Below are positions 1,617 to 24,724 of a stretch of DNA of 24,724 nucleotides, in pieces. The notes below the pieces were generated by a model that had not been told where the DNA came from, ran no database searches, and was given only the letters and a program-made list of their open reading frames with translations. The DNA is taken from positions 1 through 24,724 of the IMG/VR virus record IMGVR_UViG_3300012348_000042, one strand, 5' to 3'. The DNA comes from a virus (Duplodnaviria; Caudoviricetes). The first letter of the stretch is position 1. Each line of letters begins with the position of its first letter. Both the position numbers and the translations under genes were made by a program.

Positions 1617-2073
1617 AAAAGTGCCTCTTTTTCAGGTTCTCAGTTGCCGTAAGTAACTGTAAGTTTGCAGGGACATGAAGACCGCAAACATTTTTACCGT
1701 GTAAAGGGATAATGTGATCTACTTGATACTCTACACCAAGGGCAGCACTACGTAGTACAGCTAATGAATAGATTTCCTTGATAAATAAAGCATCTAACTC
1801 AGTCAACCAGTTAGGCGTTGCTTGCTTAACTGTCATTTTTCTTTTACGTGACCAGTTTCGCTTTTCAGCTTTTCTATTAGGCAAGGAAGCTCTTTCTTTA
1901 TCGTACTTCCGCAGCTTATCTCCTTTAAGCTCTCTGCGGGTTTTGTCGTACTGGGCTTTCAGGGCTTTCGCTTCAGGAGATTTATCACGATTGGCTAACA
2001 CTTCTTCTTTATTACGAAGATACCAGTTTCTCTTATAAATCTTATCCCGTTCTTCTTTTGTTAGAGCATTCAT
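1609..2073 (-). CDS. Free-standing HNH endonuclease inserted between endolysin and holin
   Basis: YQVDHIIPLHGKNVCGLHVPANLQLLTATENLKK, preceded by a basic helical region and TPNWL. Same subfamily as 398-937. Confidence 0.9.
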   Translation of the reverse strand: MNALTKEERDKIYKRNWYLRNKEEVLANRDKSPEAKALKAQYDKTRRELKGDKLRKYDKERASLPNRKAEKRNWSRKRKMTVKQATPNWLTELDALFIKEIYSLAVLRSAALGVEYQVDHIIPLHGKNVCGLHVPANLQLLTATENLKKRHFYD

Positions 2074-2453
2074 ATATATTTACTTCTATGTAATTCAATA
2101 TGAGGATAATCTTTAAACGTAATCCAATCCCCACCAGAGACAATTGGAATGTCCATAGACTTAGCTATCTTCTTGATGTGGTCAATTACAGGAATGTAGT
2201 ACTTAGCATCCCAAGTAACTTCGCCATCTTTGATGACAGCAATGTCCACAGCCTTACCTGTGATGTGTCTACTGTTCATCGTCTGAGACTTCCCCGCATC
2301 AAAGAGAGCCTTCTGGCGCTCCTTAGTGCGTAGACCTTCAGTGATGGAGAAGTCCAGAGGACTGTCTTTGATAGCTTCGTTAAAGACCCTCTGCAAGTCT
2401 GGGTGGACTTGAGAGAGCCTCTCGGAGCTTTTAGTTCCGAATGAGAATGTCAT
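2070..2453 (-). CDS. Endolysin, M15 family L-alanyl-D-glutamate peptidase (T5-lysin-like)
   Basis: VHPDL..V...AI, DFSITEGLRT.ERQ..L, S.TMNSRH.TG.AVD, GGDW..FKDYPH.EL motifs; no cell-wall binding domain. Confidence 0.9.
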   Translation of the reverse strand: MTFSFGTKSSERLSQVHPDLQRVFNEAIKDSPLDFSITEGLRTKERQKALFDAGKSQTMNSRHITGKAVDIAVIKDGEVTWDAKYYIPVIDHIKKIAKSMDIPIVSGGDWITFKDYPHIELHRSKYI

Positions 2454-4315
2454 TGAGGTGCTCCCATTTCTTTACGTAAAGATTCCAGTTCTTGCTGTTC
2501 AGCAGGGGAAAGCTGTACTGGTTGTTGTGGGCCTGTCTGCAAACGTTGCAACTCTTCTGGCGGTATTTTAATCTCACGATACATCTCTGCCAGTTTAGCA
2601 GCAGCAGCAGTGGCATTACCTTTACTTGCAGCCGAAGAAGCCTGTAAAAGCTTATTGGTAGCGGCGCTTGAGTAGGCAATCTTAGCGGCAATCTTAGGAG
2701 CAATCACAAGACTAGCGAGACCCGCCACAGCGCCATAACCTGCCCCCATTGAGTCCCCTGAATACACATTACCAGCAGAAGCACCCAACACGCTTGACAG
2801 AGTGGCCGCAGTAGCTAAATCTATTGATTTACCGCGCTGGCTCAGAATTTTACCTGCGTTAGCAATTACTTTAGCTCTATTCTGGACTGCCGGAGGGAGG
2901 ATAGCTTGGAACTGTTCTGCGGTAGCTTTATCCTTTAATTTGTTTGCAATGTTTGTCAATCCCCCATCAGCAAAAGTCTTCTCAAGATAAGCACGTTGAA
3001 TATTCTCAGCAAGTCCTGTAGTATCCACCCCCAGAGCTTTAGCACGATTCAACATCATCTGAGTTTCTTTCCAAGAAGAAACATTACCAGAACTAATGAT
3101 ATTATCGGCAATCTTTTCAGGATACTTATTAGCAGCAGTGGCTAACAACTTAGGATCGAGCTCAGTGATAGCCTGCTTGTAGCCGCTGTTCAATGCCTTA
3201 TAGCTATCTTTCAAAGTAGGAGAAGCTGCTTCAGCGGCTGCATCCATTGCTTTGGTGATCTCCTGCACTGCTTTGTTTACGATGTTGTAACCTACCGTAC
3301 CTTTTTCAAGCTCCCGCTGCTTTTCCAATAATTTAGAGCGCACTTCGTTAGCTTGTTTGAACGTAAGATCAGGCTTGATTGCTAATAAATCTTGGGCTTC
3401 TTTATAACCACTCGCGCCCATCAGACTAGAAGCAGACGCCCCTTCAGTCAACTTTTCCTGTGCCTGCTTAATTGCAGTAGCACCTACATTGTTAATAGAC
3501 ACCATAGACACAGGAGCTGATCCTTCTTTGTCCATGAGATTTCCAAGATTAGTTCCGTAATCCTCGTAAAGCTTGCTTCTTCCTTGCTTCTGTGCTGCTG
3601 TCAGCCCCATACCAAGCTCTTCACGCGACAGGACAGTGCTAGCAAGCTCGTCTGCTAATGCTGAGACTTCATTCGATAAGGCATTCTTCATCTCAATATC
3701 TTTAGCAGAAGCTGCTTTTGTAGGGCCGATGCGAGAGACACGCTCTGTCACTTTAAACAAAGTAGATTCAGGAGCAGCTTCTTGAATACCTAACGTAGTG
3801 CCTTGACGTTGGAGCATACGTTGAACTTCTTGCCTCGCTGCTAATTGCTCGGCTTCTGAGATTGAAGGGCCAAATAAACGGGTTCCTACAGGAGACTCTC
3901 GTAATGCTGTGGCTCCCTTAGACAGACCTCTTCCAACAACCTGCCCAATTCCTTCAGTGCCCGCACCCAAGAGAAATTCTTTAGGGTATTCTAAGGCCAT
4001 ACGAGCAGCATCTACTGGTTTATTCAGCCCGAAAGTTTCAATTAGTTGCTTACCTGCCGTACCTAATGCAGCGCCTCCTCCGGACAACCCCATACGGAGA
4101 GGAATACTGAGCTGCCCAACTCCGGGAAGCATAGTAGCAGCCATTGACCCGACCATCGGTAAAGTCTCAGCCCCAATCTCTAACGCTGTTTTGCGAGTCT
4201 GTTCCGGGTTATATTCAGGAGTTACAGCACCTGCAATAGGCTCACCGAGAGGGCCGTAGCCCATCTCTTGCCGCAGTGCTTCCAGTTCCTGTTGTTCTGC
4301 TTGTGTTAAAGCCAT
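2450..4315 (-). CDS. Internal virion / DNA ejection protein (large)
   Basis: 621 aa, helical, with Gly/Ala-rich hydrophobic segments near both ends; last of three genes after the tail tubular genes, as in podoviruses. Confidence 0.65.
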   Translation of the reverse strand: MALTQAEQQELEALRQEMGYGPLGEPIAGAVTPEYNPEQTRKTALEIGAETLPMVGSMAATMLPGVGQLSIPLRMGLSGGGAALGTAGKQLIETFGLNKPVDAARMALEYPKEFLLGAGTEGIGQVVGRGLSKGATALRESPVGTRLFGPSISEAEQLAARQEVQRMLQRQGTTLGIQEAAPESTLFKVTERVSRIGPTKAASAKDIEMKNALSNEVSALADELASTVLSREELGMGLTAAQKQGRSKLYEDYGTNLGNLMDKEGSAPVSMVSINNVGATAIKQAQEKLTEGASASSLMGASGYKEAQDLLAIKPDLTFKQANEVRSKLLEKQRELEKGTVGYNIVNKAVQEITKAMDAAAEAASPTLKDSYKALNSGYKQAITELDPKLLATAANKYPEKIADNIISSGNVSSWKETQMMLNRAKALGVDTTGLAENIQRAYLEKTFADGGLTNIANKLKDKATAEQFQAILPPAVQNRAKVIANAGKILSQRGKSIDLATAATLSSVLGASAGNVYSGDSMGAGYGAVAGLASLVIAPKIAAKIAYSSAATNKLLQASSAASKGNATAAAAKLAEMYREIKIPPEELQRLQTGPQQPVQLSPAEQQELESLRKEMGAPQ

Positions 4316-8306: not shown

Positions 8307-8957
8307 TTATGTAGCACTCCATTCCATTTCTTCATTGTAGTGGTTGCGCTCAATAGCAACAGCATCTGCCAAGGCTAAACGGTACATCTGGTAAGCTTCA
8401 GAACTTAACAAGCCAGAATCCTCACCTCGCTCAGCAATAGCCTTAGAGTAAGTCAACATAGCTACCAAATGATCAGGCACTAAGATACGTGTGTTGTCCA
8501 CAACCAAATCAGCCTGAGGGATAACCAAGTTAAAGCGAATGTTATACACACCATCAGGGATAGGGTACATATCCACTTGAGTATCGCCATTAGAGTCTAC
8601 ACCGTTAAAGTTGTAGTACAGAGGCTCACCCTTTTGAGTATCAGTCAGGAGATACTGTCTGTTCATCCATGTGGAAGGGGCGTAACGTAGATTAAAGTCA
8701 CTGGTGTCGTTAAGAACATCCATGACCCTAAAACGTGTACGAGAACCTGTCAGCACATAGTTGAATACAGCGTCAGAAGTTACCGCTGTCAAGGTATCAG
8801 TTAAAGCGTTCCAATCGTAGGCATCTTCTACCTCACGCTTGGCATCATTAATCATGACTCCAATCATAGCGCTGTACTCAGTGTCATTGACAGAGGATAC
8901 TACAGGCTCACGCAAGCGTCTGAGCACATTGTTAACGATGTCTAAATACGTAGCCAT
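8307..8957 (-). CDS. Tail tubular protein A / head-tail adaptor
   Basis: MATYLDIVNNVLRRLRE..V, INDAKREVE...DW, YPIPDGVY: typical podovirus adaptor pattern. Confidence 0.8.
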   Translation of the reverse strand: MATYLDIVNNVLRRLREPVVSSVNDTEYSAMIGVMINDAKREVEDAYDWNALTDTLTAVTSDAVFNYVLTGSRTRFRVMDVLNDTSDFNLRYAPSTWMNRQYLLTDTQKGEPLYYNFNGVDSNGDTQVDMYPIPDGVYNIRFNLVIPQADLVVDNTRILVPDHLVAMLTYSKAIAERGEDSGLLSSEAYQMYRLALADAVAIERNHYNEEMEWSAT

Positions 8958-9477: not shown

Positions 9478-10719
9478 TTAAAGCTCCGCAGAAAGGTTTA
9501 CCACTTCCCAAAACTGCCCTGTGGCAGTTGTCGACAAGCTTCTATAAGCGGAAATGTATGCAGGGCCTCCCGCGTAATTAGAGGTGTTAGCGGTCACGTT
9601 GATTTGTGAATATGGCCCCGTATTCGATCTCTGCGCGGCTGTTGGGCTGGCTCGCATGACTACTGGAAGCGAGAGCCAGCACATTATGTTTTGACCTGCT
9701 GGCCCATATCCAATCGCACCAATGTCCTGAACTTGGCAGTACCGCTGACACATAATCAGCTCACGCCCGTAGTCCCTGCGCTCAAACGGGGATGCAACAG
9801 TACCTGCTTCTAACTGGACTCCGGTAATATAGAAGGTGGCTCCGCTTGTGCCGACTACTGAGGTTGCGCCTGTGGCTGAAATGTAATAAGAGCCAGACCA
9901 AGAGCCAGCAGTTCCACTATATGTCGAGCCAACACCCAAACCAAAATACAACTCAAGACCTTTACCGTTATCTTTAAGCCAAGTGCCAGAAGTATCCCCC
10001 GCAACAGTTACAGTCTTTTGCTCCCATGTGTTTGCAGATGAGATTGTGTATGTAAATGGGTAAGTTCTGGAGCCACCGCTGTTTGACAATGACCCGCCAA
10101 ACGTGCCAGTAAGACTTGAACGAACCCAGAAAGAGAATGTAATTGGCTGTGCGCTTGCAGTCCCCCACGCAAGGTCTGCTACGTTAAACCCCTCAATCTT
10201 TTGCCCCACGTTAAAGTAACTTGCGGCTAAAACAGAATAAGCAGAAAGGGAGGTAACACCAAGATAGTTTGTAAACCCCGCTGGAGGAGTTACCGAACCA
10301 GCATTCTGCTGAACTGAGTATTTTGAAGCCGCAGATAAAAAACATTGCCAGCGATCAATAGAGTATTGAGCGTCAGTGGGTGTAACACTCGCCCCGTTAT
10401 TCCTCTGGTCAATCCGCATGTCACCGTTGATGATGCGGTTGCGGAAGCCAAAGCCCTCATTGCTTGCCAGATAAGTGGCTCGATCCGCAGATGCGCCAGC
10501 CAACGTGGACAGTTGTGCGTCATAGGCTTGTACCGACACACCAATATCTGTAGGCTTCAAGCCTGTCAGTTCAACAACAGTACCTGAGCTGTTCTTGACG
10601 TACAGCTTCTTATCCGCTGTGTTGACAGCCAGCTCAGCACCTCCTGCTGCGTTGGTCAAGTCCCCCGCCAGGGGTACAGAGGATGCTGTGTCACTCTTTT
10701 TAGTTAACAAGGTAGCCAT
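9478..10719 (-). CDS. Tail fibre / receptor-binding protein with Mtd-N-like N-terminus and carbohydrate-binding-like domain
   Basis: N-term K.S..A..VP...DL....ELAVNTAD.KLY.K; then NRIINGDMRIDQR..DRW...Q.IEG...TFSFWVRS...GVQLEAG..A.PFE.R....EL..CQRY. Confidence 0.8.
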   Translation of the reverse strand: MATLLTKKSDTASSVPLAGDLTNAAGGAELAVNTADKKLYVKNSSGTVVELTGLKPTDIGVSVQAYDAQLSTLAGASADRATYLASNEGFGFRNRIINGDMRIDQRNNGASVTPTDAQYSIDRWQCFLSAASKYSVQQNAGSVTPPAGFTNYLGVTSLSAYSVLAASYFNVGQKIEGFNVADLAWGTASAQPITFSFWVRSSLTGTFGGSLSNSGGSRTYPFTYTISSANTWEQKTVTVAGDTSGTWLKDNGKGLELYFGLGVGSTYSGTAGSWSGSYYISATGATSVVGTSGATFYITGVQLEAGTVASPFERRDYGRELIMCQRYCQVQDIGAIGYGPAGQNIMCWLSLPVVMRASPTAAQRSNTGPYSQINVTANTSNYAGGPAYISAYRSLSTTATGQFWEVVNLSAEL

Positions 10720-11768
10720 TAGTATGTGCCTCCATTAATCGTTGATGTCGTGTATAAACCGTTTGTAACCGTGGCTGCATTGCCATTAATGGAGCCTGAG
10801 ATGGTACTAGAAAAAGTCTTAGTACCTGCTATCGTTTGATTACCTGTTATTAGTACCGCAGAAGCCAGTACGTTAGAAGCCTCTGTAGCACTCGCAGCCG
10901 CTGCCGTGGCGCTGTTAGCTGCACTCGTAGCACTATTGGAAGCACTGGTAGCACTGTTAGCTGCGTTAGTGGCAGAGGTGCTTGCATTACTTGCAGAGGT
11001 TGATGCAGATGATGCCGATGTAGACGCTGCCGATGCACTAGATGCTGCATTGGTAGCCTGCGTAGCTGCCGAGGTAGCCGAACTAGCAGATGTCGTTGCA
11101 CTTGTAGCTGCATCAGAGGCACTAGAAGCTGCATTGGTAGCTGCTGTAGAAGCCGTAGAAGCAGAGTGACTAGCTGCTGTAGCACTACTTGCTGCATTGG
11201 TTGCAGAGCCAGAAGCTGCTGTTGCACTAGATGCCGCTGCTGTAGCTGAGCTAGCTGCTGCGTTCTTACTCGCTAAAGCATTGGTTTCACTGGCTGAAGC
11301 GTTGGTAGCTGCTGTAGAAGCTGTTGTTGCAGAACTTGCTACACTGGTAGCTGAACTAGCAGAAGCTGATGCACTAGTACTGGCTGCTGAAGCACTGGTA
11401 CTAGCTGCTGAGGCAGACGTGGATGCCGCTGTAGCGCTGGAAGCAGCGTTAGTAGCGTGTCCTGAGGCTGTAGTTGCACTTGAAGCAGCAGCAGTAGCGG
11501 ATGAGGCAGCCTCGGTAGCGGATGTAGCTGCTGTAGTAGCTGACGAAGCAGCCGCTGTAGCACTTGTAGCTGCTGCGGTTACACTAGAAGCTGCCGAGGT
11601 AGCTAAGGATGCCGCAGTAGTTGCCGAAGAAGCTGCTGCGGTAGCCGATGTAGCCGCCGCTGCTGCGGAGACAGATGCCTCGTTAGCCTTAGCAACAGCC
11701 AATAGAACTTCACTTGAAGCATCGTTGGTAGCGTCCCCAGAACCTCCGGGGCCACGATAAATAGCCAT
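10719..11768 (-). CDS. Ala/Ser/Thr-rich tail fibre shaft (lambda Stf-like repeats)
   Basis: MAIYRGPGG.GDA N-term; long run of A.xSAT.A 7-residue repeats; V..TGNQTIAG.KTF and I.GNA.T fibre motifs; C-term INGGTY. Confidence 0.8.
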   Translation of the reverse strand: MAIYRGPGGSGDATNDASSEVLLAVAKANEASVSAAAAATSATAAASSATTAASLATSAASSVTAAATSATAAASSATTAATSATEAASSATAAASSATTASGHATNAASSATAASTSASAASTSASAASTSASASASSATSVASSATTASTAATNASASETNALASKNAAASSATAAASSATAASGSATNAASSATAASHSASTASTAATNAASSASDAATSATTSASSATSAATQATNAASSASAASTSASSASTSASNASTSATNAANSATSASNSATSAANSATAAAASATEASNVLASAVLITGNQTIAGTKTFSSTISGSINGNAATVTNGLYTTSTINGGTY

Positions 11769-17255: not shown

Positions 17256-18515
17256 TTAGTAGCCCGAAATTGGGTCTAAAATTTCATATTCATCGTCTTC
17301 GTAGTCAGCGTTATAGTTAGCAATAGCAAGCTGATCCACGTAGGACAAAGCATCAACCAAGTCATCATGGATACCTACTGTAGGGAACATGATTAACTGG
17401 TCTTTAAACTCAGTCCAGTCACGCGCAGTATTGAAGCTTACTCGGCCATGCTCCATACGCCCTTGAAGGCTCCAGACAACACGGTCAGTCTTCTTCCTGT
17501 TACCATGAGTTAAGTCTTGAATATGCGAATAGATGTTATTCTTACGCATCAGGTCATTGAGATAAGGCAGAACAGCATTCTTCAATGCTCCTCTTTCAAT
17601 GCCTACGGAGATCGGTTGATAGTCTCTGATAGCCTTTAAGATGTTCACAGCAGTCTCTCGGATGTCCCATCGACCATGCTCAATCTTATCTACCCACCAA
17701 TCACCGTTATCTTCTACCTTGACGATGGCGATGGCTGACTCGTCTAGCCGCTTCTTAGCAGCACCTGCGTTCTTAGCCACATCCTCAAAGCCTGCCAAGT
17801 CAATAGCTACCACGTAACTACCATACTTAGGCTCAGTGGCTAACTTGAACCACTCTTCTTTGAAGATGTCAGCGCCTGCGTTATCGAAGCTGGACAGATA
17901 TTCCTGTTTGAAAGCAAAGCTACTGAGTGTACGCTTGGCTGCTTCAACTTCTTTAGGGTCAATAGTCTCGTTATCTTGAGTGGTGAAGTGCCATGACTTC
18001 CATTCCTCATCTGTCTCTTCTTGGCCTAGCTTATAAGTATCATAGAACCAATTACGACCAGAAGGAGTAGAAATGAACAGTGCTCTGCCTTTCTTGTCCG
18101 ACAAAGAAGCTCGAATAACCTTTTCCCAAATCTCCTGCTTAATGAAAGCACATTCGTCCAGTACCACGTACACAAGGGACACACCACGAAGACTATCGGG
18201 GTTATCAGCGCCTCGAACCAGAATCTTTCTTCCGTTGACAAGGGTAATCTCAAGGTTGTTAATGTGAGAGGACTTAATCACTGGACGACCTAAGTCATGC
18301 AGTAAGTCCCAGATGATCGTACGTGCCTGCCCAAGCGTTGGAGCGATGTACATCACCGCTGACCCTTCAGGGCAGTTCAAAGCCTCGATAAGGAGCGTTA
18401 CAGCCGACAGCCGGGACTTACCGCAGCGACGACCAGCAGCTACAACCTTGAAGCGATGAGAGTCTTTAAAGACCTCTTGTTGCCAGTTCAGGAGTGCAAA
18501 GTTAAGTTCAGACAT
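17256..18515 (-). CDS. terL: Terminase large subunit
   Basis: Walker A VVAAGRRCGKS, Walker B YVVLDE, FISTP coupling motif, nuclease AIDLAG and HDDLVDALSY. ATG 18515 has GAGGA upstream. Confidence 0.95.
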   Translation of the reverse strand: MSELNFALLNWQQEVFKDSHRFKVVAAGRRCGKSRLSAVTLLIEALNCPEGSAVMYIAPTLGQARTIIWDLLHDLGRPVIKSSHINNLEITLVNGRKILVRGADNPDSLRGVSLVYVVLDECAFIKQEIWEKVIRASLSDKKGRALFISTPSGRNWFYDTYKLGQEETDEEWKSWHFTTQDNETIDPKEVEAAKRTLSSFAFKQEYLSSFDNAGADIFKEEWFKLATEPKYGSYVVAIDLAGFEDVAKNAGAAKKRLDESAIAIVKVEDNGDWWVDKIEHGRWDIRETAVNILKAIRDYQPISVGIERGALKNAVLPYLNDLMRKNNIYSHIQDLTHGNRKKTDRVVWSLQGRMEHGRVSFNTARDWTEFKDQLIMFPTVGIHDDLVDALSYVDQLAIANYNADYEDDEYEILDPISGY

Positions 18516-18882
18516 CAATTATGTCCTCATCGCTAACACTGCTTACAGTGGGCGTATTCAAGCCTGTAATGTTGATGCTGATCTGAGGTGCTCCACCAGC
18601 TTGTTTAGCCGCATCGAACATAGACACAGGGAGGATACGATCAACAGCTAACTTCATAGCTGCCATCTGTCCGGGATGTCCGTCAGTCATGGCAATCTCT
18701 ACCATCTTGTCTAAGATACGACGACCGCCAGTAGCGAGCAATCGTTCCTTGAACTCTTGAAGTCTGGCAGCATCGCCAGCAGGACGACCTACCTTACCTT
18801 TGGTTCGATCCTTCACTGCTTGAAGGTCAGACTTAGGTGGCCTACCCTTACCTCGTAACTTAGGCTGTACTGTATCTGTCAT
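18508..18882 (-). CDS. terS: Terminase small subunit (probable)
   Basis: Immediately upstream of terL; basic GRPP/GRPA N-term, HPGQMAAMKL..DRILP, I.INITGL C-term. ATGA overlap at 18879-18882. Confidence 0.75.
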   Translation of the reverse strand: MTDTVQPKLRGKGRPPKSDLQAVKDRTKGKVGRPAGDAARLQEFKERLLATGGRRILDKMVEIAMTDGHPGQMAAMKLAVDRILPVSMFDAAKQAGGAPQISINITGLNTPTVSSVSDEDIIDV

Positions 18883-19148
18883 GCGCTTGCTTTCTTGCAC
18901 TCTTTGCAGTAGCTAGAGTAGCCAGAGTAGCTTTTCTTATCAGCGTAGAAGTCAAACAACTTCTTCTCTACACCGCACTTAGCACAAGACTTAACACCCT
19001 TGCTTAAAGACTCTTTAACAGCTTTCTGCTGTGCGTACCTACTCTTGTTATATTCCTCACGCTCATCCTGTGGTTTAGACAAATGATGTAAGTGTTCTGT
19101 TAAAACCTTAGTTTCTTGAACGTCATACAGACGTGGTGTGTTTTCCAT
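18879..19148 (-). CDS. Cys4 zinc-finger protein (HNH-associated type finger, no nuclease domain)
   Basis: KSCAKCGVEKKLFDFYADKKSYSGYSSYCKEC. Start ATG 19148 has AGAGGA SD; the longer track start at 19280 lacks support. Confidence 0.7.
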   Translation of the reverse strand: MENTPRLYDVQETKVLTEHLHHLSKPQDEREEYNKSRYAQQKAVKESLSKGVKSCAKCGVEKKLFDFYADKKSYSGYSSYCKECKKASA

Positions 19149-19266
19149 TTTGATTCCTCTTGAAAAGCTACAGGTGTTCAGACACACGCACCTGTAAACG
19201 TGTTTCAAGCCTATCACTAGGTGTCTTTTGTTTGGTAGACATACCTTAAGTATAGACACCCTGTTA

Positions 19267-19401
19267 GTTAGACAAAACATCTATGCTTACCGTGCTTCGC
19301 ACTTAAAGTACTTTAAAGGAACGTATAAGTTAAGAACTTACTAAGTTAAATATTATAAGTACTTGTTATAAGTAACTGTTAGTAGGTTAACTTATACATT
19401 C
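19267..19401 (-). other. AT-rich structured element, copy A (origin-like or ncRNA)
   Basis: 15-bp inverted repeat 19319-19333 / 19387-19401 flanks a core homologous to 22637-22675; GCGAAGC mini-hairpin at 19292-19302. Confidence 0.6.
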
Positions 19402-19481
19402 GTTGTATCAACTGTCCAGATTCCTGCTTAGCAACATAAGAGTCCATCACCTTCTTCGTCACTTCATAGTACAGTATAATA

Positions 19482-19509
19482 AGTATAGCATGCTTTTGTC
19501 GGAATGCAA
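19482..19509 (-). promoter_or_regulatory. sigma70-type promoter for the late/packaging arm
   Basis: TTGCAT-N16-TATACT on the minus strand, with A-rich upstream sequence. Confidence 0.6.
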
Positions 19510-19687
19510 GCTTTTTCTTCATTTTGTTACAATTATTTACATATGTTACTTTCTTAAGCCATCTACTTCTTACATTTACGACTATGCACTCGTAGGATTG
19601 TCTAGTCTACCTACTTTCCTTTACCGATCAACTACTTAGCGCTTTAAGGGCTGAGGCCTAATCTGTCCCTAATTAAGTCTATTTTGA

Positions 19688-19890
19688 CCTTTTTGTGAGC
19701 GTCAGCAGTGACGTTAGTCACGTAAGGCTCCATTTCCTTTTTTGTGAGCGTCAGAGGCTCCTGCAAAGTTAAACACTAAAGCCCTACCCCTCCCCCCCAT
19801 GACTTGATAGTCTGCAAAGTTACTAAGCAGTCACAATCCATACAGTCTAGTCAGTGACTAAGCAGTCTAGTAAGATACTAGTCAGTCACT
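19688..19890. repeat. Cluster of short direct repeats and a C-rich tract (candidate genome end/packaging region)
   Basis: TTTTTGTGAGCGTCAG x2, CTGCAAAGTTA x2, ACTAAGCAGTC x2, CTAGTCAGT x2; CCCTACCCCTCCCCCCC at 19782-19798. Confidence 0.7.
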
Positions 19891-19940
19891 TTGTCAACAC
19901 TATAGGTAGTGTCTGAACTGGGTAGTGTACGCTATAGGTA

Positions 19941-19974
19941 GTGTATGCCTGTACAGTACTGTATAGAAACACAG
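19941..19974. promoter_or_regulatory. Tandem LexA (SOS)-box-like sites
   Basis: CTGT-ATAGAAAC-ACAG (19959-19974, preceded by TA) and one-mismatch GTGT-ATGCCTGT-ACAG (19941-19956). Confidence 0.55.
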
Positions 19975-19996
19975 GTGTGAGAGGCAGTGTAGGTGC

Positions 19997-20045
19997 CTAC
20001 AACGTACACTACAACGTACACTACAACGTACACTTGAACGTCACA
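19997..20045 (+). repeat. 12-bp tandem repeat x3 plus a degenerate fourth unit
   Basis: CTACAACGTACA at 19997, 20009 and 20021, then CTTGAACGTCACA. Confidence 0.9.
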
Positions 20046-20126
20046 CATCAGAGACCCAGCAAAGGATCAAGGGATCAAAGAGTTGAGTCTGTTACAAACT
20101 GTTACACTTTAAAGGTCAACAAAGGG

Positions 20127-20154
20127 TTGACAAGTCACAGGATGGGTATATGAT
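20127..20154 (+). promoter_or_regulatory. sigma70 early promoter
   Basis: TTGACA-N16-TATGAT about 50 nt upstream of the first early ORF. Confidence 0.75.
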
Positions 20155-20204
20155 TCAACCATGCCAACGCAATAGTGCAAGGCAGCCACCAAGGAAACAT
20201 CATC

Positions 20205-20297
20205 ATGCACAAGATCATAGACACTATCACTGCCATCACTATCGGCCTTATGCTTACTGCATTGGCCTTGCATTACTTTGACGTCCTGGTCAAGTAA
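20205..20297 (+). CDS. 30-aa single-TM peptide, first early gene
   Basis: MHKIIDTITAITIGLMLTALALHYFDVLVK*; SD AAGGA at 20191-20195. Confidence 0.7.
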   Translation: MHKIIDTITAITIGLMLTALALHYFDVLVK

Positions 20298-20332
20298 GAT
20301 ACAATCAGTCAACACACACACGGGAGAATACA

Positions 20333-20533
20333 ATGAAAGCATGGACAATCAAGCAACTCTACGAAGCGCTTCAACATGATCTCACACTGTGCCATACTGC
20401 CTTTGAGCGCTCAATGGTCAAGGCCATTAGCGGCAAAGAGATCCGTGAGAAAGCTATCGAATGGGCAAAACAACGTAAACTGACACCTATGGAAGTAGCT
20501 ATCGCTCAAGAGTACGGCTATCAAGGGGAGTAA
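20333..20533 (+). CDS. Hypothetical early protein
   Basis: 66 aa, GGGAG SD, tight packing. Confidence 0.75.
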   Translation: MKAWTIKQLYEALQHDLTLCHTAFERSMVKAISGKEIREKAIEWAKQRKLTPMEVAIAQEYGYQGE

Positions 20534-20534
20534 C

Positions 20535-20759
20535 ATGAAGAGCATTGATGATCTGTATGCTCTCGCTCGAAGTGTAGGCGGCTCTGTGTATTCTCATGGA
20601 GACTACGGTCAACGACCTACAAAACTGCTCTTAGGTTTTGCAGAACTTGAGCGCCTTTTAGAGGGGTTTGAAGTAGAGAAACGCCAAGCCTACTTAGAGG
20701 GCGTGAAAAGTGGGATTGAAGCGTCAAAGGCTTATGGCTCAGAGGTTCTGGTTAAGTGA
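20535..20759 (+). CDS. Hypothetical early protein
   Basis: 74 aa, GGGGAG SD, starts 1 nt after the previous stop. Confidence 0.7.
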   Translation: MKSIDDLYALARSVGGSVYSHGDYGQRPTKLLLGFAELERLLEGFEVEKRQAYLEGVKSGIEASKAYGSEVLVK

Positions 20760-20762
20760 TTC

Positions 20763-20841
20763 CACCGTGTAAGGTTCTGACTATGTTAGAATCTTATGCA
20801 GTGCAATTAAGTGCACTAGATCCCGCCAGTGATGTACTGGC
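20763..20841 (+). other. Intergenic RNA hairpins (RNase III-site-like long stem)
   Basis: GTGTAAGGTTCTGAC-TAT-GTTAGAATCTTATGC pairs fully with G-U wobbles on the plus strand; then GTGCA/TGCAC and GCCAGT/ACTGGC hairpins. Confidence 0.6.
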
Positions 20842-20861
20842 ACACCTCAAGGACTTACACC

Positions 20862-21188
20862 ATGAAACAATCAATCAATTTCTCTCAGTTTGTCGATGCC
20901 TTCCGTGCTCATGATCGCTATGATTCCTTTGGTTATGCAGGCCTTCGGGTGATCTTTGACTATTTGGAAGACTACGAAGAACAATGCAACGAAGAAATAG
21001 AGCTTGACGTTATCGCCATTTGCTGCGACTACAACATAATGGACATCGAAGACATCGTTAAAGAATACCGGATTGATGTCTCTGATGTTGACGCTGACGA
21101 TTTGGAAGGGTTTGTATTGGAGTATCTGAACAACAACACTATGGTGTTGGGTCAGTGTGTTGATGGTGTTGTCTTCCAATGCTTTTAA
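20862..21188 (+). CDS. Highly acidic early protein (possible DNA mimic / anti-restriction)
   Basis: 108 aa from ATG 20862 (AAGGA SD); 25 D/E versus 6 K/R by hand count; IELDVIAICCDY motif. Confidence 0.7.
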   Translation: MKQSINFSQFVDAFRAHDRYDSFGYAGLRVIFDYLEDYEEQCNEEIELDVIAICCDYNIMDIEDIVKEYRIDVSDVDADDLEGFVLEYLNNNTMVLGQCVDGVVFQCF

Positions 21189-21198
21189 GGGGCCTGCC

Positions 21199-21489
21199 AT
21201 GAATGAAAATCTTATTACCTACACTAACCACGATGGGGTTAAGCAAACAATTAAGGGCTTGTCGTTATCCCAAGATAAGGTGGGCCGATATTGGCTTTGG
21301 CACGATAGCTTAGAACAAAACTTGGCATACAAAACTAAGACCCGCGAAGATACGCTGTTGGCTGCTTTAGATTCTGCCCTGTTCCTGCTGAGTCTCAAAC
21401 AAGAGCGAATCGATGAGCTATCCATTATGTGTGACAGGGTTCAAACCTTCATTGAAGCTATTAAAGGAGATCAAGATGAGTCGATATGA
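21199..21489 (+). CDS. Hypothetical early protein
   Basis: MNENLITY... start with AAGGGG SD; 96 aa. Confidence 0.7.
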   Translation: MNENLITYTNHDGVKQTIKGLSLSQDKVGRYWLWHDSLEQNLAYKTKTREDTLLAALDSALFLLSLKQERIDELSIMCDRVQTFIEAIKGDQDESI

Positions 21490-21670
21490 AGTCCAATTCA
21501 AATCATCAGGTATAGTAGCTTTCAGCGCCTCTGAACGGGGTATCTGTCAGCACTGGCTAGAATGTAACGACTATGAACCTGAAACGCCCTGCGTTGACCT
21601 TGATACTAACCTTGTTCGGTGGGTTAGGGGTGAGTGTCTAGGCTTGTTCGTCCTTAAGAAAGTAAACTGA
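21476..21670 (+). CDS. Hypothetical early protein
   Basis: MSRYEVQFK... start with AAGGAG SD; 64 aa. Confidence 0.7.
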   Translation: MSRYEVQFKSSGIVAFSASERGICQHWLECNDYEPETPCVDLDTNLVRWVRGECLGLFVLKKVN

Positions 21671-21672
21671 CT

Positions 21673-21774
21673 ATGTGGCCTTTCCCGTCCTTTCCCAACC
21701 CACTGGACAGCGGCCATAAGAAGCCTAAATTCAACCCTTCAAACCATGAAGATGCACCATTGTGCAAGGAGTAA
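21673..21774 (+). CDS. 33-aa Pro-rich peptide (MWPFP...EDAP)
   Basis: MWPFPSFPNPLDSGHKKPKFNPSNHEDAPLCKE*; fills the gap between neighbours exactly. Confidence 0.6.
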   Translation: MWPFPSFPNPLDSGHKKPKFNPSNHEDAPLCKE

Positions 21775-21780
21775 ACGAAG

Positions 21781-21951
21781 ATGAACATTCAAGCAATTAC
21801 ACACGCTTACCGTGACTATGGCGACCCTTACCCTATCGCATTAGAGGCCGAACGGCGTGCCTTTGCCGAGGGAAACATAGAATTATCACAATGCTATGCT
21901 TTTATTAGTGATCTATTGTTAGAGGTTGAAAGGTTGACACCTAATGACTAA
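21781..21951 (+). CDS. Hypothetical 56-aa early protein
   Basis: MNIQAITHAYRDYGDPYPIALEAERRAFAEGNIELSQCYAFISDLLLEVERLTPND*; AAGGAG SD. Confidence 0.7.
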   Translation: MNIQAITHAYRDYGDPYPIALEAERRAFAEGNIELSQCYAFISDLLLEVERLTPND

Positions 21952-22159
21952 GATTAAGCAATTCGCATACACGATCAGAGGCTTTGAGTTCTACGGTCTC
22001 TGTGAGGCGCAATCTATCGAGGCTTTGCCCTTGATCGTTACCTGCACCGACCTCTACCTCGAACACTTGCCGGGTGACCACGATGTAAAGAACATCGTTG
22101 ACTATCAGGTGATCTTGGACATCGAGGACATGGTTAGATTGGAGGCTGAAAATGCCTAA
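21944..22159 (+). CDS. Hypothetical early protein
   Basis: 71 aa, overlaps both neighbours by 8 nt. Confidence 0.65.
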   Translation: MTKIKQFAYTIRGFEFYGLCEAQSIEALPLIVTCTDLYLEHLPGDHDVKNIVDYQVILDIEDMVRLEAENA

Positions 22160-22241
22160 CTACCCTAACCACTGGCTAGTGCTGTCAGTAGTGCTTTTAG
22201 CTTATATGATCGCGGGATACTATGATTCAATACATTATTGA
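22152..22241 (+). CDS. 29-aa single-TM peptide
   Basis: MPNYPNHWLVLSVVLLAYMIAGYYDSIHY*; GGAGG SD at 22141-22145. Confidence 0.65.
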   Translation: MPNYPNHWLVLSVVLLAYMIAGYYDSIHY

Positions 22242-22341
22242 GCTTCTGCTACCTTCACGAAAGGCTCACCGAGGCCCTTTAAAGGCTCAGGAAGGCCCTC
22301 AACTCACCAAAGACATATCCAAGGAAGGATTTACATCATGA
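22222..22341 (+). CDS. Possible 39-aa peptide
   Basis: MIQYIIELLLPSRKAHRG...GFTS*; ATGA overlap with the next gene. Confidence 0.4.
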   Translation: MIQYIIELLLPSRKAHRGPLKAQEGPQLTKDISKEGFTS

Positions 22342-22583
22342 CACGCTGCGTTTGCTGCAATAAACAACTGAATGACTACGAATCAACACGTAGACACGCC
22401 ATCACCAATGAATTCTTAGACACCTGCAATCGGTGCATGAAGGACATCCCTAACATTCCGACCAAGGACAGACAGGACTTGCTGAAGGAAGCTGACTACG
22501 ATGACGATATGGACAGCGACTACATTGACGTAGAAGCCAAGGTTGTCACATCTTGTTACAATTTAGGGCTTGACAAGGATTGA
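22338..22583 (+). CDS. Small Cys4 zinc-binding protein
   Basis: RCVCCNK.LNDYESTRR....EFLDTCNRC with an acidic tail; AAGGA SD. Confidence 0.75.
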   Translation: MTRCVCCNKQLNDYESTRRHAITNEFLDTCNRCMKDIPNIPTKDRQDLLKEADYDDDMDSDYIDVEAKVVTSCYNLGLDKD

Positions 22584-22597
22584 ACTGCGGATATAAT
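22570..22597 (+). promoter_or_regulatory. Consensus sigma70 promoter for the replication genes
   Basis: TTGACA (22570-22575)-N16-TATAAT (22592-22597). Confidence 0.85.
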
Positions 22598-22612
22598 AAT
22601 ACTTAAGAGACT

Positions 22613-22768
22613 GAGACGTTGCTTCTATGCATTGATGTTAACCTACTATAAGTTACTTATACTAAGTACTTATAACATTAACGTATAAGCATTGATGTAA
22701 ACGTCTTAGGACTTTAAAGTAACATTAAAGTCTCTATGTAACATAGACAATGTTAGATTGTTGTCTAA
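22613..22768 (+). other. AT-rich structured element, copy B (origin-like or ncRNA)
   Basis: Nested stems AGACGTT/AACGTCT and TTGATGTTA/TAACATTAA surround the conserved core; GACTTTAA/TTAAAGTC and TAGACAA/TTGTCTA hairpins follow. Confidence 0.6.
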
Positions 22769-22800
22769 ATGTTACTAACTTTCAACAACTGGATGTTAAA

Positions 22801-22986
22801 ATGAATGATTTGTCTATCACCATGTACGAAGAACTTGATGCACAGGAGCAAGAACTTGTACGCTTTGAGTGCTGGTATCACTCTGTGATTGATGATATGG
22901 CTGGTCTTATACGTGCCAACGGCTATGAACAGGTCATGTATGACGTAATGTGTGCTGTGAAGCGAATGTCTGAGGATGAACAATGA
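22801..22986 (+). CDS. Hypothetical acidic protein
   Basis: MNDLSITMYEEL..., 61 aa; GGA SD upstream of 22801. Confidence 0.7.
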   Translation: MNDLSITMYEELDAQEQELVRFECWYHSVIDDMAGLIRANGYEQVMYDVMCAVKRMSEDEQ

Positions 22987-23039
22987 TTGTCTCACTGTTT
23001 GTGGGTGTCTTAACACTTTTAAAGGTGGTGCTTAAATGA
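22983..23039 (+). CDS. 18-aa hydrophobic peptide
   Basis: MIVSLFVGVLTLLKVVLK*; GAGGA SD; ATGA overlaps at both ends. Confidence 0.55.
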   Translation: MIVSLFVGVLTLLKVVLK

Positions 23040-23317
23040 GCAACAACAACCCGTATAGCTTGATCGTTAACGTTGAGAACGCTACCTGTGTTGTCGAGTT
23101 CGATGTTGATCGCTTTGGTGACATCAACTATGAGACATGGGAAGTGTTCTATCACAAGGACTTTAAGAGAGACGCTAAGAAGATCTTAAACAATGACCAA
23201 TGGACACTGGTCAATGACCTGATCCATGACAAGACATGGGAGTCCATTGAAGACCAGATTAAGGCACAATGGAAGGATGTAGAGGAACAACAGAGGGCTT
23301 ATGATGAGCAGTACTAG
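23036..23317 (+). CDS. Hypothetical protein
   Basis: 93 aa, AAGGTGG SD, overlaps the primase-helicase start. Confidence 0.7.
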   Translation: MSNNNPYSLIVNVENATCVVEFDVDRFGDINYETWEVFYHKDFKRDAKKILNNDQWTLVNDLIHDKTWESIEDQIKAQWKDVEEQQRAYDEQY

Positions 23318-24724
23318 CAAGTTCCTCAGGCATATCGCCTGTGATCACTGTGGTAGCTCTGACGCAAACTCGCTGTATGATGACGGCCATACTCACTGCT
23401 TCCAATGCGGTACAACAGAGCATGAACATGAAGCTGAAGATCGACACGTTATTAGACACAACATGGCACGAAAGATCGTGACACCTATGGAAATCAAAGG
23501 ACAATTCAAATCAATCCCCGACCGAGGAATCAGTCAGGCAACTTGTGAGAAATACGGAGTAACGACAGATGGAGACAACCAATATTATCCTTACACTGAC
23601 GCAGCAGGAGTTAGAACGGCTGTTAAACAACGCACTGTTTCTACAAAGAAATTCTCTATCTCAGGAGACTTCAACGGAGCAACTCTATTCGGTCAGTCTC
23701 TCTTTCACGAAGGAGGAAAGGCTCTCACCATCACAGAAGGAGAACTTGATGCTCTCGCAGCTTTCCAGATGCAAGGAAGTCTCTACCCTACAGTGAGCAT
23801 CCGTAATGGCGCTCAGGCAGCGTTAAAGGACTGCAAAGCTCAGTATGAGTGGATCAATACCTTTGACTCTGTAGTCATCTGCTTCGATGCTGATGAGCCG
23901 GGGAAGAAGGCTGCTAAGGAAGTGGCTGAGTTGTTCGGCAACAAGGCCAAGATCATGCAGTACAAGGATGGATACAAGGATGCTTGTGAATACTTGCAAT
24001 CAGGTGCGTCTAAGGAGTTTGTTAATGCTTGGTGGAGGGCTGCTCCTTATGTGCCTGACGGTATTGTCAACGCTGCTGATCTCTGGGAGGAAATCTCCAA
24101 GCCAGAGCCTGTGGCAGAGGCTCAGTACCCTTGGAAAGGCTTGAATAAGCTCTTGTATGGTATCCGCCCATCAGAGTTGATTACAGTCACCGCAGGCAGC
24201 GGGTTAGGTAAGAGTCAGTTCCTTCGGGAGATCTTATACTCCCTGTTGAAGACTACGGAGTGGAACATCGGTGGGCTCTTCCTTGAGGAATCTACTCGTA
24301 AGACAGCACGGAGTATTATGAGTCTCCATGCTAACAAACTGTTACACTTGCCTGATACGCCCACGACTGAACAGGAATTGAAGGAGGCTTTTGATGCCAC
24401 GCTTGGAAGTAATCGTATCTATTTGTTTGATCATTTTGGTAGCAGTGACGTTGACAATATTAGCAATCGAATCCGCTACATGGCTAAGGCTTGTGACTGT
24501 CGGGTGGTTTTTCTTGACCACATCTCTATTGTTGTTAGTGGCCAGGATGTGGGAGATGAGAGAAAGGCCATAGACAACATGATGACCAAGCTACGCACAC
24601 TGGTGCAAGAGCTAAACATTACTCTGATCTGTGTCAGCCACCTTAAACGTCCTCAAGGCAACCAAGGACACGAGGACGGTGGTAGTGTGTCATTGTCACA
24701 GTTGCGAGGCTCTGGAGCCATTGC
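23304..24724 (+). CDS. T7 gp4-like DNA primase-helicase (runs off window end; missing from ORF track)
   Basis: Zn-binding CDHCGSSDANSLYDDGHTHCFQC; TOPRIM ITEGELDALA and CFDADEPG; Walker A TAGSGLGKS (24189 on); FLDHISI, VSHLKRP and LRGSGAI helicase motifs. Confidence 0.95.
   Translation, partial: MSSTSKFLRHIACDHCGSSDANSLYDDGHTHCFQCGTTEHEHEAEDRHVIRHNMARKIVTPMEIKGQFKSIPDRGISQATCEKYGVTTDGDNQYYPYTDAAGVRTAVKQRTVSTKKFSISGDFNGATLFGQSLFHEGGKALTITEGELDALAAFQMQGSLYPTVSIRNGAQAALKDCKAQYEWINTFDSVVICFDADEPGKKAAKEVAELFGNKAKIMQYKDGYKDACEYLQSGASKEFVNAWWRAAPYVPDGIVNAADLWEEISKPEPVAEAQYPWKGLNKLLYGIRPSELITVTAGSGLGKSQFLREILYSLLKTTEWNIGGLFLEESTRKTARSIMSLHANKLLHLPDTPTTEQELKEAFDATLGSNRIYLFDHFGSSDVDNISNRIRYMAKACDCRVVFLDHISIVVSGQDVGDERKAIDNMMTKLRTLVQELNITLICVSHLKRPQGNQGHEDGGSVSLSQLRGSGAI

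Follow-up and report, generated by a model that had tools for sequence, protein, structure and literature searches.

In phage T7, an RNA polymerase encoded by the phage itself serves to open the origin and to time the genes. How are these two tasks met in phages that carry a T7-like replisome behind host promoters? The question is raised by a stretch of 24,724 nucleotides (nt) from an uncultured virus (IMG/VR record IMGVR_UViG_3300012348_000042), the whole of which is called the window here. It is part of a podophage-like genome whose late genes (major head, portal, TerL) lie on the minus strand; the plus strand carries the early genes together with a T7-like primase-helicase. Relatives in IMG/VR are up to 37-40 kb in length. 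The promoters concerned are near-consensus host promoters, and no RNA polymerase was found among the 31 open reading frames (ORFs) scanned of the relative L139, part of one genome, which include PolA, an exonuclease, endonuclease I, ThyX and RNR; the delay of the late genes and the start of replication need explaining. A preliminary description of this DNA had pointed to two homologous, divergently oriented, promoter-linked elements, termed A and B here, as either twin origins or a duplicated leader RNA. We find that A and B are a real, family-wide and undescribed pair of cis-elements, which behave most like an operator or iteron array and belong to no RNA family tested.

Two copies of one promoter-linked leader

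The reverse complement of 19353-19391 is identical to 22637-22675 at 35 of 39 positions, as had been claimed, and no inverted repeat of the window ranks above this pair (43 nt, 88%, copies 3245 nt apart). Shuffling does not reproduce the similarity: the local alignment of the two leaders scores 67, against maxima of 35 in 2000 dinucleotide shuffles of the whole leaders and 38 in 2000 of the cores. As for the flanks said to be shared, CTTTAAAGTA is present in both copies, whereas TAGAT..TTGTCTAA is exact in B but interrupted by a 3-nt gap in A. The promoter of B (P_B) lies where it had been placed and agrees with the sigma70 consensus at 12/12 positions; that of A (P_A) is confirmed by direct reading, although a promoter scan returned only an overlapping 9/12 site. 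RNA contigs of relatives from three studies end at 19442, 19445 and 19444, some 30 nt into A from its predicted start, which is a weak hint; these runs consist of contigs only, without ends or strand, and stretches they leave uncovered prove nothing. No named motif was recognised: Rfam gave 0 matches in the window at the gathering score, and otherwise three chance matches at E 6-7.4, none of them on A or B. Neither the literature searched nor supplements 3-6 of PMC10690425 (short motifs) describe the element, which the alignment archives of that paper may hold.

The element proved to be duplicated, conserved across relatives, linked to promoters and placed at the head of the late and the replication operons, in agreement with the preliminary description. 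With TerL, the primase, two DNA patterns and two divergent proteins as queries, a promoter-led leader was called 5' of terS in 119 loci (A) and 3' of a small zinc-finger gene in 135 (B), 57 further loci having the gene without a promoter call. Judged from these sequences, the element is borne by a large, abundant family of uncultured aquatic T7-like phages. From a first set of leaders, 7 A loci with visibly mis-called promoters and any leader below 60% AT were dropped, and representatives were chosen (27 of 59 A, 32 of 71 B); in a wider set, A promoters were ranked partly on the TA content of the sequence that follows. The two elements lie 2.2-4.7 kb apart in 42 genomes. There is no close isolate, TerL and the primase being less than 60% identical to all phage records, and the binned contigs among the relatives are two, one from a Sediminibacterium bin (3.4 kb) and one from a Burkholderiaceae bin (59% primase identity). 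In a 16-mer search beyond the family, 42 of 125 matches had clade genes in reach, at least two more were clade leaders and the rest were chance-like; a match to Bacillus phage SP-15 was weak (E 0.9).

A and B also change together. Scores between the A and B of one genome average 50.5, against 41.2 for other pairs (42 genomes), with an excess over permuted pairs at p 0.0001 in the sister clade of the window's own (24 genomes), and a genome's own pair beats its five nearest primase neighbours in 34 of 48 cases (mean +2.2). Similarity of the A core follows that of B (rho 0.59), the primase (0.51) and the zinc finger (0.46) much more closely than that of terS (0.15; 48 genomes). Of 40 hand-picked genomes placed on a primase tree, 37 have an A and a B of the same type (8 of these unclassified in both); the types never cross between the two main clades and are independent of the two terS types. 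Such concerted change would be accounted for if both copies answered to one trans-acting factor, or if gene conversion took place now and then. TerS itself was considered as the co-evolving binder and rejected, as A follows it neither in similarity nor in type. The window is mosaic in this respect: its terS type and TerL (17256-18900) are nearer the sister clade, and A, B and the primase (19262-24724) belong to the other clade.

The palindromic unit and the predicted stems

Both leaders contain a degenerate 8-bp palindrome, CWWNNWWG, whose strict form CWTNNAWG is enriched 10-18 times: CWT-N2-AWG occurs 67 times against 6.9 expected in the A representatives and 114 times against 6.3 in those of B. 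In the wider family (49 A and 51 B leaders) the C-N6-G form is found 253 times against 78.5 and 239 times against 55.5, and other C-to-G lengths are at or near background. Spacing between units peaks at 8, 9-11, 17-18 and 21-22 nt. An exact 10-bp period is kept by 4 units in L382 and by 6 in L389. The units sit on both sides of an AT-rich core, promoter first, and the first is fixed at +3/+4 after the -10 box in the wider family: one begins within 7 nt of that box in 22 of the 49 A and 33 of the 51 B leaders, where about 2 are expected, compared with 4 of 48 candidate early promoters from the same loci. A copy in that position extends across the predicted start, and so part of it must lie outside the RNA. 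A repeated degenerate palindrome overlapping a promoter start is what an operator array consists of.

The unit has diverged by lineage. In a distant clade (16 loci, several near-identical; primase 37-41% identical) there are 5-7 exact copies of CTATATAG per locus, all of which fall inside the A leader, in the roughly 520 bp preceding P_A or in the 3' end of the zinc-finger gene, and B mostly holds 1-2 units, without the long stem. At L409, CTATATAG is also found at +3 of a minus-strand promoter. In distant relatives the AT-rich block itself shifts, to a place before the zinc-finger gene (L317:1110-1210) or right before the primase (L322:2310-2400).

The stems from which a functional single-stranded structure had been proposed can be drawn at the positions given. 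In A, 19319-19333/19387-19401 forms 14 Watson-Crick pairs and one G-U on the minus strand; in B, 22614-22620/22700-22706 forms 7 Watson-Crick pairs and 22632-22640/22673-22681 forms 8 and one G-U on the plus strand. Strand-specific wobbles do exist, but the argument from them comes down to a single G-U in each of two stems. The structure itself finds no support, as the long stem does not covary in 26 B copies and breaks at fixed degenerate positions. Its 30 pairs are formed at 81.6%, against 81.1% after column shuffling (133 of 500 shuffles reach the observed value), and for the other pairing and covariation measures 318, 54, 293 and 58 of 500 do so. The C, T, A and G positions of the unit keep pairing, and the W and N positions are unpaired in 7 to 18 of 24 rows; RNAalifold retains 11 pairs with a consensus energy of -1.6 kcal/mol.

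The test is not blind, because it detects covariation in two small hairpins at the 5' end of A and absent from B, with 28 double changes against 9.3 and none of 500 shuffles as high (31 sequences, 15 pairs), on an alignment of the sister clade rather than the window's, where related rows inflate the value. Repair of DNA hairpins could give the same signal. The sister-clade counterpart of window 19398-19460 (L028:9400-9470 and homologues) has one hairpin with a near-invariant 10-nt loop and one with a 3-nt loop, and by its alignment this module is a candidate for a real RNA element; in the window's clade another block is invariant at this place. Hairpins of the type C(GNA)G, about five distinct ones on the sense strand and none reversed, are too few to serve as evidence of a GNA-triloop bias. 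The long stems follow from leaders built of inverted copies of a self-complementary degenerate palindrome, and we read the long hairpins as a by-product of that arrangement. The locus illustrates clearly how a long hairpin can be predicted where there is probably an array of DNA motifs and not an RNA.

What the pair may do

Taken together, the sequences lead us to favour, tentatively and with somewhat less than even confidence, a role for A and B as paired sites on double-stranded DNA for one dimeric protein that co-regulates both host-sigma70 promoters. Such a dimer would read the C and the G of the unit, with A/T-degenerate positions between them, on duplex DNA and would bind cooperatively. 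The copy on the start site and those downstream would block or delay initiation, until replicating genomes titrate the binder or an early phage product displaces it. The binder could be a product of the phage replication module, for which the zinc finger is the candidate by position, or a host nucleoid or silencer protein. We favour a common switch for the replication and late operons because the simplest effect of a site on the start point is to block initiation.

Several observations weigh against paired operators. The B leaders fold better than shuffles (median z -3.6 in the 32 representatives), with a slight preference for the sense strand (24 of 32), and one of the covarying A hairpins consists of two units. 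Relaxed units are frequent throughout the genome, with 7.3 per kb in the window; where at least 4 of them cluster, 82 such clusters are in A or B and 486 elsewhere in 927 kb, so that specificity must need flanks or context. At the start sites of the window no perfect unit is present, B having a one-mismatch copy and A its first unit at +13. In the window's own clade the A-B excess over permuted pairs is not significant (p 0.10, 15 genomes), the primase tree shows only about three independent type shifts, and the ranking of A promoters partly by TA-richness biases the wider set towards AT-rich leaders. The flanking genes gave no significant family or fold match, and it is from the array that we infer protein binding. 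A lytic phage that represses both its replication and its late genes would also, in our judgement, be out of the ordinary.

Origins of T7 and T4 consist of a promoter plus an unwinding element, and origins inside initiator genes occur. Twin transcription-primed origins, in which host RNA polymerase starting from P_A and P_B primes inward forks and the AT core unwinds, are on this pattern a serious rival, though we give them a rather low probability; the units would then be iteron-like sites for an initiator or helicase loader encoded by the genes flanking B, a role that likewise presupposes binding to DNA and could co-exist with that of operators. An easily melted core is compatible with the proposal: the least stable 60-bp window of the whole stretch starts at 19324, in A, and the third least stable at 22639, in B, and in 57 of the 70 loci having both elements the two are the least stable windows (4 A only, 4 B only, 5 neither), each a promoter followed by a potential unwinding element. 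The succession of promoter, units, AT core and units also adjoins a conserved two-gene cassette before the primase-helicase, and the scan of L139 without an RNA polymerase points the same way. The pattern is weaker in the distant clade, where B has shrunk to 1-2 units and the weakest window mostly lies outside A. Primase sites and skew lend no specific support either, as (G/T)(G/T)GTC, which we assume from T7 to be the recognition sequence, shows no preference for either strand (23 vs 24 sites in A, 20 vs 17 in B), and the four-fold-site skew, which differs between early, replication and late genes, can be explained by codon usage. An alternative origin candidate is the separate DnaA-box cluster of 47 of 83 relatives, which have at least one box in the probable genome end region (2.3 per kb, against 0.07 elsewhere); the window lacks it, with no DnaA box inside or near A or B and its sole consensus box at 8542. 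A combined scheme, in which the zinc finger would bind the arrays, open the AT core for the primase-helicase and couple the replication and late promoters to copy number, strikes us as speculative and decidedly doubtful. If true, such twin origin-operators would give T7-like replisomes a system of replication initiation and timing that has not been described for them.

A duplicated structured leader RNA, acting in antitermination, protein binding or translational control, with units that pair and a protein that reads the mismatched duplex, is in our view unlikely. The folding of B speaks for it, at z -5.75 in the window's own copy, as do the two covarying A-only hairpins, the first with units as its arms, and an RNA contig (18614-19442) that spans the A core together with terS. 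Yet the long stem behaves as described above, the A leaders fold barely better than shuffles (z -1.7, and -0.5 in the window) and favour neither strand, the sense strand being better in 13 of 27, units span the start site and are found upstream of the promoter as well, and no Rfam family applies. Copies that bracket the early genes could instead, when bound together, pause injection as an entry checkpoint in the manner of T5, or mark the two cuts of a long terminal repeat. The geometry (3245 nt here, 3180 bp in T5), the DnaA-box clusters near the pair in relatives and a probable terS with two GRP motifs, which recur in most of the 17 family sequences shown and which we take to resemble AT-hooks, would suit this. 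We nevertheless hold it to be quite improbable, given that the window has no DnaA box at the pair and no T5 sequence match, that the A type is independent of the terS type, that contig ends have no sharp peak at A or B, and that the T5 model is itself a hypothesis from an unreviewed preprint. The 68 contig ends fall off with distance from terL (9 within 400 nt, 27 at 408-1537 nt, 32 beyond), as the size of the contigs can explain. There is very little to commend stems processed by RNase III to trim both leaders, judged by rules taken from parts of PMC6212723, PMC1540722, PMC5371410 and PMC8708148. Some B stems do score -21.8 to -24 on the E. coli in vivo matrix, above the -25.5 cut-off of PMC6212723 Table S5, but in 26 leaders antisense scores are equal (best ungapped scores -21.8 to -27.9 sense, -21.5 to -28.4 antisense) and the best register shifts between homologues. 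The spacing of half-sites 4 nt apart, as which we read the matrix, is not enriched (8 vs 7.5, 5 vs 5.8), and the centre of the unit is often unpaired, unlike the two central positions of RNase III sites, paired at about 90% in the portion of PMC6212723 drawn on. Just as remote is a neutral by-product, for which AT-rich spacers under no constraint would have undergone slippage and template switching, with gene conversion making A and B alike; unit copy number does differ among close relatives and dinucleotide composition is strongly biased, but the 8-bp length alone is strongly enriched, the first copy keeps its place after the -10 box, and the sites persist at 37% primase identity.

Whichever of these holds, the analysis supplies a precise cis-element with its consensus, its lineage variants (CTATATAG vs CWTNNAWG) and a candidate protein.

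Neighbouring genes and known systems

Table 1. Positions of the paired elements, their units and promoters, and adjoining features of the window
Feature	Position	Strand	Basis or remarks
Element A, whole leader	19262..19481	-	homologous leader in 119 loci
A inverted repeat, 15 bp, around shared core	19319..19401	-	one arm with one-mismatch unit 19322-19329
Shared AT-rich core, copy A	19349..19391	-	78% AT over 19324-19391
A-only 5' module, small hairpin and block invariant in the window's clade	19398..19460	-	alignments
Unit CWWNNWWG	19462..19469		13 nt after -10 box of P_A
Unit CTTTAAAG	19311..19318		leader A
Unit (CATAGATG on minus strand)	19278..19285		leader A
P_A, sigma70-type, TTGCAT-16-TG-n-TATACT	19482..19509	-	sequence; heads late operon
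Element B, whole leader	22598..22800	+	homologous leader in 135 loci
Shared AT-rich core, copy B	22637..22679	+	75% AT
B units	start 22622, 22630, 22682 (one mismatch), 22690, 22712, 22723	+	element B
P_B, sigma70	22570..22597	+	inside 3' end of zinc-finger gene; heads replication operon
C4 zinc-finger gene, acidic tail, directly 5' of B	22338..22583	+	109 loci; invariant C4, C7, C30, C33
First gene after B, acidic two-helix protein	22801..22986	+	116 loci; pLDDT (model confidence) 87, helices only; best Z 5.9
T7-like primase-helicase	23301..24724	+	runs off window; Pfam on relative L139
TerL	17256-18518	-	follows probable terS
Small terminase (probable, by position)	18508..18900	-	two GRP motifs; no family match for this ORF
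Endonuclease-VII/HNH-like ORF between A and terS	18879..19280	-	PHROGs E 4e-10
Non-coding short-repeat region between P_A and early promoters (20127, 20278)	19670..20050		repeat families D9, D15, D18

The zinc-finger product is a candidate binder or regulator by virtue of its position. Its model has a small zinc-finger fold, for which Foldseek gave no match at E<=0.001 (best Z 3.0); Pfam leads all stayed below the cut-off (zf-FLZ in 23 of 40 members, Gin in 9 of 40), no useful name occurred among the 120 listed of 574 homologues, and the Atlas was blank. Because of the sub-threshold similarity to the anti-sigma factor Gin, the protein may bind RNA polymerase instead of DNA. A ribbon-helix-helix repressor encoded directly after B was considered and rejected, the model having helices only and the matches to GapR (Z 5.8) and the TurB N-domain (Z 5.0) lying below a meaningful level. 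The endonuclease-VII/HNH-like ORF between A and terS was found in the window, L092, L101 and L127; two more HNH-like ORFs of the window are at 398-937 and, probably, 1609-2073. An Ala/Ser/Thr-rich, repetitive, tail-fibre-like protein (10719-11768, minus strand) is the source of most direct repeats in the window.

The short-repeat region upstream of P_A is probably the genome end region. Its tandem repeats comprise a 12-mer present three times at 19997-20041, a pair of 32-mers at 19674 and 19723 and a 24-mer family at 19809-19887. Relatives such as L176, L392, L061 and L070 have clusters of 2-8 DnaA boxes, placed 300-750 nt before P_A on its upstream side; as in T5, the boxes are an optional element for host DnaA. 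Beside the region, a short conserved stretch (window 19564-19705) reaches contig depths of about 260 and about 1720 in two RNA runs (82% cut-off), which may represent a collapsed terminal repeat, carried-over DNA or a small RNA.

Among known systems, the lambda nut and HK022 put antitermination leaders act as RNA. They resemble A and B in being two homologous leader elements behind divergent promoters; the shared part of A and B does not covary, and only the A-specific hairpins look RNA-like. With the T7 primary origin and with T4 ori(uvsY) and ori(34), the pair has in common a promoter followed by an easily melted AT stretch, beside T7-like replication genes, and it differs in its host promoter, its arrays of palindromic units and its lack of a strand-biased primase site. 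The PeSLs of T4-like phages are, in the part of PMC4122927 drawn on, terminator-promoter units repeated in variable regions, where they shuffle genes. They too are repeated cassettes of promoter and stem-loop with a sequence common within the genome, whereas A and B are two copies only, fixed at operon heads, and a scan of the window found no terminator-like site on either.

A host silencer as the binder of A and B is possible by analogy with LUZ24, a podovirus which, according to the sections of PMC4635203 that we draw on, depends fully on host sigma70 promoters and has in Mip an anti-silencer. H-NS/MvaT silencing likewise targets AT-rich DNA and is relieved by small early proteins (PMC4635203), but as described there it is a matter of AT-rich binding without a fixed C-N6-G unit, and an anti-silencer was not identified here.

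The closest geometric analogue that we found is the inverted pair of T5, going by the part of the preprint drawn on (bioRxiv 10.1101/866236): copies of 131 bp, 3180 bp apart (1851-4258 in relatives), lie around early genes in the injection-stop region, ordered IRC-spacer-IRD and IRD'-spacer-IRC', with palindromes and DnaA boxes. In both cases two non-coding copies, rich in palindromes and inverted relative to each other, lie about 3.2 kb apart at a distance that varies, and bracket early genes near a genome end with DnaA boxes in the neighbourhood. The paired DnaA boxes that lie inside the T5 copies are absent from A and B, sequence similarity is lacking, and A and B stand directly 3' of the sigma70 promoters of the replication and late operons.

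MetJ boxes and the P22 Arc operator are tandem operator arrays of small dimeric repressors. Compared with these, A and B have another consensus, no ribbon-helix-helix protein was found, and two distant copies share an AT core; what they have in common with them is a series of short degenerate tandem palindromes, at 8- or 11-bp spacing, laid over the promoter start.

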